Assembly (NCBI GenBank): GCA_036170915.1 | Contig: JAVHQC010000036.1 | Span: forward strand, 160,001 to 224,000 | DNA from: Cyanobacteria bacterium auto_48_18 | GTDB taxonomy: Bacteria > Cyanobacteriota > Vampirovibrionia > Obscuribacterales > Obscuribacteraceae | DNA: 64,000 nucleotides | Direction: 5' to 3' | Shown: piece after piece, positions 27,001 to 30,000 of the stretch | Numbering within the stretch: the first letter of the stretch is position 1 | Layout: every line of letters begins with the position of its first letter | Program-made: the position numbers

Positions 27001-30000
27001 CATGTCGTTAAGAAGCCTTTATAGACGCCACTGCAACTGCTTCTAATGTAGCACCAAGCAATTAAGATTAAGCAGGTCTAGTCTTACCTCAGACTGACAG
27101 CAGCAAAAGCGGGCATAAGTGAAAATGAAGGTAACTGAACGCGAAGGTTCATGCTAAGAGCAAATTTATGCTATGAGTATATGACTTATCTTGGTAGATA
27201 ATAGGAGTTATCAGTAGATGTTCGATCGGCTTGCACAAATCATCAAGGCTGCCTTCAATGCCATTCTGGGCAAGGTAGAAGATCCGCAGATGATGCTGGA
27301 ACAGACCTATAACGACTTACAAAATAACGTTATTCAAGTGCGTCAGGCTGTGGCTCAAGCGATTGCCACCGAAAAGCAGCTCGAACAACAACTGCAGAAA
27401 AACAAAGACCAGGCCGCTACCTGGCAGAATCGCGCGGCCATGGCCGTTCAGCAAAATAACGATGAGCTGGCTCGCCAGGCCCTGCAAAGAAAGCAGCAAT
27501 ATGCCCAGGCTTCAGTAGACCTCGAACAACAGCTAAAAGTGCAAAAAGAAGCCACATCAGGTTTGCGCCAGCGCCTGACAGAGCTTGAGAACGAATTGCA
27601 AAAAGCCCATACGAAAAAACAAGTGCTTATTGCCCGCGACAAAGCGGCTAAAGCAACAATGAAAGCCAATGAAATTTTGTCCAAAACCAATGCCAACGGC
27701 ACCCTGAACGTAATCGAACGCATGGAAACCAAAGTGCAGGAACGTGAAGCGAAAGCAGCCGCTCTTGGCGAACTCGGCTCCGACCAGCTTGATAAACAGT
27801 TTAAGAATTTCGAAGGCAAGACTGATATCGAGATGGAACTGATGATGCTCAAAGGTCAGATGGGCGCAGCGCCAACCAACTCCACTGATGGTCCTAAACT
27901 AATCACCAACGATAAATCAGAGCGTCAACCAGTGCTGCTTGAGACTATAGATGTTGAATCTATTGAGTCTAAAGAGGCTCGTGAGCTGAAGACCAACGAC
28001 TGAAGTAATCTTCAAAACGCCCTTCTAAGATAGCTTTGCGGCAATTCTGCGCCTCATCAATGAGGTAGCTGACATTGTGTATAGAAAGCAGCATGGCACC
28101 AGCCATTTCGTTCTGCCGCACCAGATGATGCAAATAAGCACGACTATGATTGGCGCAAGTAGAACATGTACATTCGCTGTCAATCGGACCAAAGTCGCGC
28201 TGGTAGGGAGCGTTTTTTAGCGAGATGCGACCGTCTTTAGTGAAGGCGGCACCATGCCTGGCCAGGCGGGTGGGTGAAACACAATCGAACATGTCGATAC
28301 CACATCTGATGGCATAGATGATATCCCAGGGAGTGCCCACGCCCATAAGATAACGCGGTTTTGCCCGCGGCAGAAGCGGTGTTGTGTAAAGCACCACATT
28401 CTCGATGGTTTTACGATCTTCACCCACAGCCACTCCGCCAATGGCAAAACCTGGTAAATCATGAGCAGTCACAGCCCTGGCCGACTCTCTGCGCAATTCC
28501 TCATAAATGCTGCCCTGTACAATGCCAAAGAGTGCTTGATCGGCCTCGCGCCCATGTTTATCAATACAAATTTCCAACCACTGATGGGTACGGTCCATGG
28601 CCGCTTTCGCTTCCTCATATGTGGCCGGATTTTTTACACACTCATCAAAAGCCATAATAATGTCTGAGCCAATGGCATTCTGAATGGTCATGCTTTCAGA
28701 CGGGCCGATGAAATGCTCTTTGCCGCCGCGGTGATCTTTGAAGAAAACACCCTTGTCTGTAATTTTGCGCAGCTGATCAAGACTGAAGACCTGGAAACCA
28801 CCAGAGTCTGTGAGAATCGGCTTGTGCCAGTTCATGAACTTGTGCAGACCACCAGCTTCTTTAATCAGCTCATGGCCAGGTCGCAAATATAAATGGTACG
28901 AATTAGACAGAACAATCTGCGCACCGCAGTCAGCAGTCTGCTCAAATGTCAGCGCTCTCAAAGCGGCGTTAGTACCCACCGGCATAAAGACCGGCGTCTC
29001 CACTGTACCGTGAGGTGTGTGAAACCGCCCTGCCCGCGCCCCTGACCAGGGACACTCAGCTTCTAATTCAAAGGTTACCGCGTAAGTCATAGTCTTTTAG
29101 CTCTCAAGCATCAGTATAGATATAATTTCTAAGAGATGAAAGAGATGCAAAATATTACTCAACTAAGAAGGGCTTTAGCATTGTGCTTGAGCTTGTGCCT
29201 GGGTGCCAGCGCCGCAGAGGCAACTGACACTGGTGTTTACGCCAATAAAGTATTAAAAAGAAGATTGCAATCAGACAAGCGCATGGCCGTTAGTGTGGCC
29301 GCCGAAGGTGGTGCTGACGTTTATGCCAGCTTCCCCTTTGCCAGTAAACAAATACAATCGCAACTGCACCTGATTCTAGGACGCTATCAAACTTTTGCTG
29401 GTCAAGACGATGCATTGGCTTTGCCCACAAGGCCAGGTGAAAAGTCTACCGCTGACATTGAAATGGAAGTAGCTGCTCTTAAAGGAGGCGCTGACCAGAA
29501 GCGTCTTGCTCATACACGTAAAAGTGCAGAACAACTGATTTTAGGCTCTGCCGTCAACGACGTAAAAGTTTTAGATGAGTTCAGCGCACCACCTGTGATG
29601 GAAGGTGCGGGCAGTGCATTGCGTAAAATCAAAAGCATTGATGCAGCATCGATTGAAGCCTTCGATCTGGCTCGCAGCAATCGAATAGCAGCGGCACTGC
29701 GTGTTTTAAGCACCGCACTGGCCGCGAGCAAAGAAACTGGTAGTGCGCAAATTCGCTTGAGCAATAATCATATTTGCTTACTGGCATTGAACGATGATTT
29801 AAGTGGTGCCCTCACGGCAATGAAAAAAGCAGCAGCGCAGAACCCTCAGTTTACTGACGGGGCAAAATACCCCATTACCGTGCTTAATCAAGTAGCCATT
29901 TATCTAGCGGCCAAAGACACAGCTTCGGCCCTGACGGCCCTCGATAGCTTAAGGAACACCACTATTTCGGGCCGTCTGGGGCTGTGCTACTGGCATAGCA

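Follow-up and report, generated by a model that had tools for sequence, protein, structure and literature searches.

The window, by which we mean the whole 64,000-nt stretch analysed here, carries a gene of the PspA/IM30 family, which we call the A type, oriented divergently to the operon for F-type ATP synthase. This pairing is kept across the order Obscuribacterales, and we read the gene, with a probability of about 70%, as the ancestral PspA/IM30 of its non-photosynthetic Obscuribacterales host, slowly evolving and kept in synteny. Behind the core of the protein lies a C-terminal tail that is specific to the order and predicted to be disordered (Table 1).

Table 1. Features of the A-type IM30 locus, its neighbours and its paralog; positions refer to the window except where a contig (C4) is named.
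Feature	Position	Strand	Basis
A-type PspA/IM30 gene	27218..28003	+	ORF, ATG start, 261 aa; stop codon included
Helix alpha0, residues 2-19, presumed membrane-binding	27221..27274	+	AF2 helix, pLDDT 72-84
ESCRT-III-like core, predicted helices 23-78, 82-157, 163-201, 204-216	27284..27865	+	AF2
C-terminal tail, residues 217-261 (45 aa)	27866..28000	+	alignment of 23 orthologs; AF2
Divergent intergenic region, IM30/AtpZ-like (228 nt)	26990..27217	.	sequence
GGGCATAAG in intergenic region	27111-27119		sequence
Extended -10-like TGCTATGAGT	27169-27178		sequence
RBS AGGAG	27203-27207		sequence
AtpI/AtpZ-like small membrane protein, first gene of divergent atp operon	26756-26989	-	PF09527 E 1.2e-8
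F-ATPase gene block	21032..26660	-	Pfam matches
F-ATPase subunit a	25899-26660	-	PF00119
F-ATPase subunit c	25177-25506	-	PF00137
F-ATPase subunit b'	24654-25133	-	PF00430
F-ATPase subunit b	24099-24653	-	PF00430
F-ATPase subunit delta	23533-24078	-	PF00213
F-ATPase subunit alpha	21935-23464	-	PF00006
F-ATPase subunit gamma	21032-21913	-	PF00231
tgt (queuine tRNA-ribosyltransferase), convergent	27969-29090	-	PF01702 E 2.3e-157
B-type paralog (256 aa)	C4:37582-38352		second PF04012 match of genome

Gene, predicted fold and paralogs

The open reading frames and Pfam matches bear out the two genes described by the survey's finding, one of 261 aa divergent from the F-ATPase operon and one of 256 aa on contig C4, which we call the B type; these are exactly the two PF04012 (PspA_IM30) matches of the genome. 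In the A type the profile matches residues 2–213 at E 1.1e-44, with 153.1 bits against a cut-off of 33.9 and over profile positions 3–216 of 220, so that residues 1–216 make up the core and 217–261 the tail. The AF2 model has the ESCRT-III-like layout of alpha0, a long alpha1-alpha2/3 hairpin (pLDDT 94–98), alpha4 and alpha5, and Foldseek places it closest to Vipp1 (6zvr, 9eom and 7o3x, E about 1e-10), with the Vipp1 and PspA matches spanning 1e-10 to 1e-4 (Synechocystis PspA at 1e-6) and CHMP proteins at 2e-2. By fold and profile the product is a member of the PspA/IM30 (bacterial ESCRT-III) family, an identification that is in itself ordinary.

Orthologs of the A type were found in 27 other genomes of the order, at 62–99% identity and with source names of Obscuribacterales or Melainabacteria. 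The genome under study, at 86% completeness, gave no match to Photo_RC (PF00124), against positive results in the control Synechococcus elongatus and in 62 of 161 genomes of the phylum sample. An N-terminally extended IM30 type is also present within the order, and it and the B type are later, faster-evolving duplicates that arose inside Obscuribacterales. A histidine kinase lies upstream of the B type in this genome, and we rejected the reading of the B type as a two-component-regulated stress paralog, as the kinase adjoins only 2 of 15 other B loci, both of the same genus (600 nt of flank checked per locus).

A conserved tail common to both paralogs

The survey's finding had described tails of 40–45 residues behind the IM30 core, which agrees with the 45 residues of the A type and the approximately 43 of the B type (about residues 214–256). 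Across 23 A-type orthologs the tail contains three short motifs, PKL-I/V, (K)EP-x-LLE and I/V-D/E-A-Q-E-V-R/K-E-L, and conservation reaches 90% or more at positions K227, L240, E242 and E256. AF2 predicted no secondary structure over residues 217–261 (pLDDT 39–48), whereas in a Vipp1 control (P0157) it returned a helix at 243–260 with pLDDT 70–89.

It had further been proposed that the two tails grew independently, and here the comparison of A and B tails points the other way. PKLIV and P-x-L-L/I motifs are common to both, hhalign aligns them with P 4.9e-5 (0.13 for a reversed control), and 15 of 16 B tails score better against the A-tail HMM than their own shuffles. Homology of the two tails is thus supported at the level of sequence, and the tail accordingly predates the A/B duplication. 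The motifs are kept at overall identities of 62–92% and occur even in divergent B paralogs, which speaks for selective constraint on the tail.

Order-wide pairing with the ATP synthase operon

The atpB gene stands head-to-head with the A-type gene in 25 of 28 ortholog loci, and the remaining three loci end within 651 nt upstream of IM30. In 17 more genomes of family f1, IM30 and atpB lie on one contig on opposite strands, 0.6–2.5 kb apart, and in one genome (G025) the pairing was resolved via contig C89. Altogether the two are paired in 43 of 43 informative genomes (of 45), covering two families and more than 20 genera, and no atp genes were found within 4 kb on either side of IM30 at 16 loci outside the order. 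The head-to-head position was likewise not seen at four Vipp1 loci of crown cyanobacteria or at four loci from f36 and f38, which are basal photosynthetic families. As synteny, the link to ATP synthase that the survey had noted is therefore solid and conserved across the order. The atp operon itself has the cyanobacterial-style order a, c, b', b, delta, alpha, gamma. We found no description of IM30 paired with an ATP synthase operon in the literature searched; "ATP synthase" and "Melainabacteria" have 0 occurrences in the main text of a PSP survey (PMC11237479), and in the accessible parts of the literature joining Vipp1 or PspA with Melainabacteria or Vampirovibrionia we found no IM30 analysis of these groups.

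The adjacency could be inherited gene order, and the strongest alternative to a functional link, a serious one although we hold it to be the less likely case, is that order was retained without functional coupling, the A type being a general housekeeping PspA with a neutrally drifting, linker-like tail. The whole block is indeed stable, since tgt on the other side, whose 3′ end overlaps that of IM30 by 35 nt, also adjoins it in most f1 loci. The lack of atp genes at the 16 outside loci and the predicted disorder of the tail are consistent with such retention, and so is the distribution of the genes in the class, where F-ATPase subunit a occurs in 117 of 121 genomes and IM30 in 29 of 121; ATP synthase thus does not need IM30. 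Against this, the pairing with atp holds in every informative genome whereas the tgt adjacency is lost at three loci (L027, L028 and L029), the neighbourhood of the B paralog is kept only within its genus (2 of 15 other loci), and the conservation of the tail motifs described above speaks against neutral drift.

How the A type might act can be sketched from the family. By analogy with PspA and Vipp1, it would attach to the cell membrane from the cytoplasmic side by alpha0, a helix that the PDB search aligns with its counterpart in Vipp1 chains, and would homo-oligomerise into rings, rods or carpets; such polymers may stabilise or repair a stressed, energised membrane and so limit proton leak. 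The tail, like the C-terminal tails of ESCRT-III proteins and Vipp1, might be a flexible segment for regulation or for the binding of partners, and the common divergent promoter region may couple IM30 expression to that of ATP synthase. The guarding of the energised membrane that the survey's finding suggested is thus a putative role, drawn from family knowledge and synteny, and the order-wide pairing offers a testable hint that protection of the energised membrane was the older job of IM30. It is doubtful, in our estimate, that the A type goes further and is a dedicated, co-regulated partner of F-type ATP synthase, acting as proton-leak guard or as assembly and maintenance factor, with the tail motifs (PKLIV, EPVLLE, IDAQEVRELK) docking to a stator subunit, the AtpZ-like protein or the surrounding membrane domain. 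If true, this would make the A type the first protein of ESCRT-III type with a link to an energy-converting complex through both gene order and direct binding, and it would provide a thylakoid-free system for what IM30 tails do.

Placement relative to Vipp1 and PspA

Among solved chains, phmmer matches the A type best to Vipp1 of Nostoc punctiforme (6zvr, 6.2e-40) and Synechocystis sll0617 (7o3w, 1.1e-39) and much less well to classical PspA of Synechocystis (7abk, 6.4e-22) and E. coli (4whe, 7.9e-18), reproducing all the E-values quoted in the survey's finding; the alignments end at residue 223–228, short of the tail. The order of matches is the same for the B type (7o3w 1.5e-27, 7abk 8.3e-15, 4whe 9.6e-7). 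These values had been taken as a specific likeness to Vipp1 over PspA, a reading that we do not retain. The pattern reflects which PspAs have been solved, because Synechocystis PspA has evolved fast for its clade and sits in a long-branched subclade of the cyanobacterial paralogs. The A type scores equally against cyanobacterial paralogs (1.4e-49 and 1.7e-49) and Vipp1 (best 1.1e-47), and the same preference appears in the single-copy, tail-less IM30 of a basal photosynthetic lineage (L075, possibly but not necessarily Gloeobacterales), which matches Vipp1 at 1.2e-70 and Synechocystis PspA at 6.1e-33.

In a maximum-likelihood tree of 115 rows and 214 columns (LG+C20+F+G4), with groups set by kinship codes, presence of Photo_RC and named outgroup loci, all IM30s of Obscuribacterales form one clade (38 rows, 100/100), in agreement with the earlier proposal that both come from a duplication inside the order. 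Terminal branches are 0.005–0.19 long in the A type and 0.08–0.85 in the B type. The IM30s of photosynthetic cyanobacteria form a second clade (49 rows, 94/96, just below the tree tool's strong-support mark of 95/80), within which Vipp1 makes up a clade of 26 rows (97/94) that does not contain the A type. The two large clades are sister groups (97/91), and Sericytochromatia-like IM30s (99/86) lie outside both, a topology compatible with divergence of the lineage ahead of the Vipp1 duplication. The available parts of two studies (PMC11304991, PMC13174344) trace VIPP1 to a duplication of PspA at the base of the cyanobacteria that have thylakoids. The proposed descent from the gene that existed before the Vipp1 split is thus upheld in its placement, the best tree putting the A type outside the Vipp1/paralog clade, but not as the sole outcome, as an AU test leaves a grouping of Obscuribacterales with the Vipp1 clade alone standing (delta lnL 12.7, p 0.231).

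This test result is the main argument for an alternative that treats the A type as a genuine ortholog of Vipp1, the Vipp1/PspA duplication having preceded the split of Vampirovibrionia from photosynthetic cyanobacteria, with the PspA-like copy lost and the tail a degenerate helix 7. We consider it improbable. Its sequence arguments are the best PDB matches, which are to Vipp1, and the tail ends of I/V-D-A-(Q)-E, which recall the V-D-A-E-L-E of Vipp1. The tree and the equal scores against paralogs speak against it, and Vipp1 and its paralog stand in tandem in many crown cyanobacteria, at loci seen here and according to the accessible text of PMC11237479. Using hhalign, A tails align to cyanobacterial tails with P 0.023 (0.47 for a reversed control), but the hhalign probabilities in the test for helix-7 homology are 2.1% and 0.5%; against a helix-7 HMM, 5 of 17 B tails but only 1 of 14 A tails beat shuffled tails at p<=0.05, and in the reverse test 9 of 44 cyanobacterial tails do so against the A-tail HMM, with p-values that are not independent since the rows are related. 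For the B type, the phmmer alignment continues, with low posterior, into the tail of sll0617. Myxococcales PspA also has a helix-7-like end, so ends of this kind recur. Taken with the AF2 prediction and its control, the tail end I/V-D-A-Q-E-V-R-E-L is at most a marginal candidate for a helix-7 homolog, and we rejected it. Acquisition of the A type from a photosynthetic cyanobacterium by horizontal transfer, which would explain the best solved-structure matches and has a precedent in the family, since in another Vampirovibrionia family (f3) IM30 falls among outgroup bacteria, is very improbable given that the Obscuribacterales clade is sister to all cyanobacteria and not nested among them, that the branching of the gene tree follows the sequence expected of the species (Sericytochromatia-like, Obscuribacterales, photosynthetic cyanobacteria), and that the gene and its synteny extend over the whole order.

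With descent from before the Vipp1 duplication as the preferred reading, the further claim that IM30 had a tail before thylakoids arose is not warranted, because helix-7 homology lacks support and the Sericytochromatia-like proteins have no tail; the tail is confined to the order and predicted to be disordered, and the basal photosynthetic single-copy lineage is also tail-less. The data indicate an ancestral IM30 with a core sequence near Vipp1 that was tail-less or differently tailed, and helix 7 appears to occur only within photosynthetic cyanobacteria, where it was present before the Vipp1/paralog split. Gloeobacter has usually been the only lineage used to polarise the evolution of Vipp1, and the Obscuribacterales and Sericytochromatia-like IM30s, placed where the species tree predicts, add deeper outgroups.

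Comparison with known systems

Cyanobacterial Vipp1 (sll0617 7o3w; N. punctiforme 6zvr) has the same PF04012 core and alpha0–alpha6 layout as the A type, is its best match in both sequence and fold (38–39% identity over about 214 aligned columns) and has a C-terminal extension of similar length. The A type differs from Vipp1 in the strict sense in that it lacks a predicted helix alpha7 with the motif V-D-x-E-L-E-x-L-R/K-x-x-L, falls outside the post-duplication Vipp1 clade, and occurs in a host in which no photosystem reaction-centre genes were found.

The IM30 of thylakoid-less Gloeobacterales, termed "PspA", resembles the A type in lying outside the Vipp1/paralog duplication and in being near Vipp1 in sequence yet not Vipp1; the available parts of the two studies (PMC11304991, PMC13174344) report no C-terminal extension for it, whereas the A type has a conserved tail of 45 residues. 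Obscuribacterales further differ in their extra IM30 paralogs, non-photosynthetic host and atp synteny.

Classical PspA (E. coli 4whe, Synechocystis 7abk) shares Pfam family and fold with the A type, as well as its presumed role in protecting the energised inner membrane. Of PspB, PspC and PspF, the partners of PspA in the classical Psp system, PspC was looked for, and no PspC domain (PF04024) was found in this genome (86% complete); in place of the psp neighbours of classical psp loci the A type has atp genes and tgt. Eukaryotic and archaeal ESCRT-III proteins have C-terminal tails with short interaction motifs, among them motifs that bind an MIT-domain AAA ATPase such as Vps4. These tails are like that predicted for the A type in being disordered, placed behind a helical core and equipped with short conserved motifs, but the motifs differ in sequence and Foldseek matches CHMP proteins only weakly (E about 2e-2).

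Intergenic region

In an RNA-library run (X4), contigs of 90–99% likeness (three of four at 90–95%) span portions of atpB and of the IM30 gene; as they are contigs only and come from a relative, we draw from them no claim on transcription, transcript ends or habitat. A consensus promoter scan of the intergenic region returned nothing above shuffle expectation, and the extended -10-like element in Table 1 was not flagged by it. A sigma-54 promoter as at E. coli pspA was rejected by eye, as GG...GC in the conserved upstream element is spaced by ~21 nt, not 10. This conserved element upstream of IM30 reads GGCATAAG...TG[C/A]TAnnA[C/G]T, and an element of the TG[C/A]TAnnA[C/G]T type was recognised by eye in 10 of 14 genus-level loci.

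The A-type gene and its genomic context

The assembly analysed, G000, spans 4.94 Mb in 39 contigs and is 86% complete. It contains exactly two matches to the Pfam family PspA_IM30 (PF04012), the 261-aa A type of the window (E 1.1e-44, residues 2-213) and a 256-aa paralog on contig C4, the B type. This confirms the survey's finding of two tailed IM30 genes, one of them beside the atp operon. The A-type gene is real and correctly described, and its family and fold are ordinary. After gamma, the atp cluster does not go on to beta and epsilon; the next genes encode a SpoIID-domain protein and an M50 peptidase. 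On the other side, the final 11 codons and the stop codon of IM30 also lie within tgt, and this double coding could explain part of the within-genus conservation of the terminal R-E-L-K-T-N-D; in other genera IM30 and tgt do not overlap (e.g. locus L021, ~45 nt between them) and the motif is still kept. Just past tgt lie a TPR-repeat protein, whose N-terminus is signal-like, and a protein for which we found no significant Pfam match.

Features of the A-type locus and position of the B-type paralog
Feature	Position	Strand	Remarks
F-ATPase subunits a, c, b', b, delta, alpha, gamma	21032-26660	-	behind the AtpI/AtpZ-like gene
AtpI/AtpZ-like gene	26756-26989	-	PF09527; head-to-head with A-type IM30
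GGGCATAAG	27111-27119		intergenic region
TGCTATGAGT	27169-27178		intergenic region
A-type PspA/IM30 ORF	27218-28003	+	ATG start, 261 aa
Overlap of IM30 and tgt	27969-28003		35 nt at the IM30 3' end
tgt	27969-29090	-	convergent with IM30
TPR-repeat protein	29136-30749		537 aa
Protein beyond tgt	30783-31982		399 aa
B-type PspA/IM30 ORF	C4:37582-38352		256 aa

The 228-nt region between IM30 and the atp genes contains GGGCATAAG and, further downstream, TGCTATGAGT, an extended -10-like sequence of the type TG[C/A]TAnnA[C/G]T. A generic promoter scan did not flag this element within the 228 nt. Inspection by eye showed the GGGCATAAG/-10-like element ahead of IM30 in 10 of 14 genus-level loci; in the AT-rich loci of sister family f2 it is either missing or too altered to be recognised.

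The claim that IM30 is locked to the ATP synthase operon was borne out as synteny. The order yielded 28 A-type ortholog loci, one per genome. In 25 of them atpB lies head-to-head upstream, and the other three run into a contig end within 651 nt; one of these (G025) was resolved by coordinate comparison, which places the atp adjacency on contig C89. The same comparison across the class sample added 17 genomes of the window's own family, f1, with IM30 and subunit a on one contig, on opposite strands and 0.6-2.5 kb apart, so that the adjacency is seen in 43/43 informative genomes, of 45. No atp gene or tgt was found within 4 kb of IM30 in any of 16 loci outside the order (3 Sericytochromatia-like, 3 other non-photosynthetic, 8 photosynthetic and 2 of Vampirovibrionia family f3), and in the four IM30-bearing genomes of families f3, f5 and f7 in the class sample, IM30 and subunit a lie on separate contigs. 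The tgt adjacency is lost in three loci (L027, L028, L029), with the atp adjacency still there where visible (L027, L029) and, for G025, on contig C89, and the histidine kinase beside the B type is kept within the genus only (2/15 other loci). In the class sample only one f1 genome, G058 (93% complete), has no IM30 match; it also lacks a subunit-a match, which fits a single unassembled or lost block carrying both.

Distribution of IM30

The best 120 of 342 homologs show 67-92% identity and, where a source is named, are mostly labelled as Obscuribacterales or Melainabacteria MAGs. Three A-type orthologs with an Obscuribacterales-type tail (P0022, P0093, P0094; 68-72% identity) are labelled Leptolyngbya sp., Oculatellaceae cyanobacterium or Drouetiella sp., probably a MAG labelling issue. 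The phylum sample includes 62 photosynthetic genomes; about half of these supplied 49 IM30s, none of them of the A type. A photosystem reaction-centre gene, present in those 62 of 161 genomes, was not found in G000. Within the class sample, IM30 is found in f1 (22/23), f2 (2/2) and f3 (2/2), is isolated in f5 (1/14) and f7 (1/9), and was not detected in the 68 genomes of f4, f6, f8 and f9 together. Subunit a occurs in 117/121 genomes of this sample versus 29/121 for IM30, and ATP synthase is therefore independent of IM30.

Phylogenetic placement

We built a tree of 115 proteins from 214 core columns, tails excluded, under LG+C20+F+G4 (PMSF). Obscuribacterales supplied 38 rows (14 A, 15 B, 6 N-extended and 3 intermediates that the representative search had added), photosynthetic cyanobacteria 49, other non-photosynthetic families of the phylum 9 and Vampirovibrionia family f3 2; the remaining 17 came from named genomes (16 outgroups of about eight phyla and one Sericytochromatia MAG). 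Near-duplicates were left out, as were the second families, which are very divergent (L041-L048, L050-L052). The topology reported by the survey was recovered with more rows and higher support. Within the Cyanobacteriota IM30 clade (97 rows, 96/84), the Sericytochromatia-like group, including the named MAG, branches earliest (10 rows, 99/86), and Obscuribacterales (100/100, stem length 0.75) are sister to all photosynthetic cyanobacteria (94/96), the two being united at 97/91. The A type forms the short-branched backbone of Obscuribacterales, from which the B type (with the intermediates, 92/91) and an N-extended type (98/90) are derived. Basal inside cyanobacteria are the single-copy, tail-less L075 and a trio of family f36, followed by two clades, one of PspA-like paralogs (19 rows, 100/99) and one of Vipp1 (26 rows, 97/94). 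A caveat is that the best tree forcing Obscuribacterales to group with the Vipp1 clade alone is only 12.7 log-likelihood units worse, too little for rejection by the AU test (p 0.231). The unconstrained tree agrees with the published view that VIPP1 goes back to a gene duplication at the root of the cyanobacteria with thylakoids (PMC11304991, PMC13174344), and the frequent tandem arrangement of Vipp1 and its paralog in cyanobacteria agrees with this duplication view (also PMC11237479). New at the level of a variant is that the IM30s of Obscuribacterales and of Sericytochromatia-like genomes are explicitly placed outside the Vipp1 duplication, as its outgroups.

The two f3 proteins (L031, L032) group with outgroup bacteria beside a Myxococcales row (outgroup clade, 100/98), apart from Obscuribacterales, which suggests separate ancestry or horizontal transfer. 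In non-photosynthetic families f12, f18 and f24 of the phylum we observed a second PspA-like family (L041-L048) that is very divergent, matching the A type at E 1e-8 to 1e-14; its proteins have 234-246 aa and end in E-L-E-x-(L/I)-(K/R)-(R/K)-Q-M.

The survey had also taken a better match to Vipp1 than to PspA as a mark of ancestry. All its PDB E-values were reproduced: the A type matches Vipp1 of Nostoc punctiforme (6zvr, 6.2e-40) and Synechocystis (sll0617, 1.1e-39) ahead of Synechocystis PspA (7abk, 6.4e-22) and E. coli PspA (4whe, 7.9e-18), with alignments ending at residue 223-228, and the B type behaves likewise (7o3w 1.5e-27, 7abk 8.3e-15, 4whe 9.6e-7). The scores hold but are not diagnostic, as cyanobacterial paralogs score as well as Vipp1s: in one phmmer run the A type matched a basal tail-less protein at 1.2e-50, paralogs at 1.4e-49 and 1.7e-49, Vipp1s at best at 1.1e-47 and a non-photosynthetic family at 2.9e-45. 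The basal tail-less cyanobacterial protein itself shows the same pattern (6zvr 1.2e-70 vs 7abk 6.1e-33). The 7abk chain is near-identical to L092 (1.5e-124), which was omitted from the tree because its sequence ends marked it as a near-duplicate of L054; within the paralog clade, L054 belongs to a subclade with long branches.

The C-terminal tails

Across 23 orthologs, the A tail carries the motifs P-K-L-(I/V), (K)-E-P-x-L-L-E and (I/V)-(D/E)-A-Q-E-V-(R/K)-E-L, with at least 90% conservation at K227, L240, E242 and E256. B tails contain P-K-L-I-V, N-(V/L)-P-M-(I/V) and often V-(V/I)-D-A-E-(I/V). With an HMM of 69 A tails, 15/16 B tails beat shuffled versions of themselves (p<=0.05; for five of these p is at the floor, 0.003), and tail-only hhalign of A against B gave a probability of 67.8% (P 4.9e-5; reversed control P 0.13). 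The two tails are thus related and the tail predates the A/B duplication, which contradicts the proposal that they grew independently.

The signal against helix 7, the C-terminal helix of cyanobacterial Vipp1, is weak at the sequence level. A helix-7 HMM of 37 cyanobacterial tails reached p<=0.05 in 1/14 A and 5/17 B tails, and the A-tail HMM in 9/44 cyanobacterial tails, p-values that are not independent because the rows are all related; hhalign probabilities against cyanobacterial tails were 2.1% (P 0.023) and 0.5%. AlphaFold2 (82 aligned sequences) predicted no secondary structure at residues 217-261 (pLDDT 39-48); by the same procedure, a cyanobacterial Vipp1 representative has a predicted helix at 243-260 (pLDDT 70-89). 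Sericytochromatia-like proteins stop directly behind helix 6, whereas the tail of L075 is short and lacks the motif. With these tail-less early branches, the weak helix-7 signal and the lack of a predicted helix, it does not follow that a tail-bearing IM30 is older than thylakoids. An E-L-E-x-L-R end is present in the f36 trio and many PspA-like paralogs (L058, L061, L063, L065, L073, L078, L081, L084, L085 and L091, from the two groups together) and lost in other paralogs; helix 7 therefore seems older than the Vipp1/paralog duplication and, on this evidence, not older than photosynthetic cyanobacteria. Outside cyanobacteria, the 271-aa PspA of a Myxococcales MAG (L184) has a helix-7-like end, E-I-D-A-Q-L-E-E-L-K-K-K-L, and such ends therefore recur in the family.

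Possible role and a third IM30 type

Also new at the variant level are the conserved order-specific tail and the order-wide atp synteny. The analysis itself establishes the fold, the conserved tail motifs, the fixed divergent arrangement with the atp operon and the 228-nt intergenic region with its recurring element. By analogy with known PspA/Vipp1, the A-type protein would bind the inner face of the cell membrane through helix alpha0, polymerise and protect against proton leak, and its tail may be a flexible segment for regulation or docking. It is possible that the A-type IM30 is tied directly to ATP synthase.

The N-extended type is a third, fast-diversifying IM30 of Obscuribacterales (L108-L112; P0123-P0140 and others) that was not found in G000; judged by match ranges, it accounts for ~60 of the best 150 representatives at 50% identity. 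An N-terminal extension replaces helix alpha0, the core corresponds to residues ~20-185 of the A type at 45-60% identity, and the C-terminal end, A-x-x-L-E-x-A-x-x-V-I-E-R-M-E-like, is its own. Among eight scanned N-extended proteins, two (P0125, P0133) contain an AHSA1/START-like (SRPBCC) domain above the Pfam cut-off and two more fall just below it.
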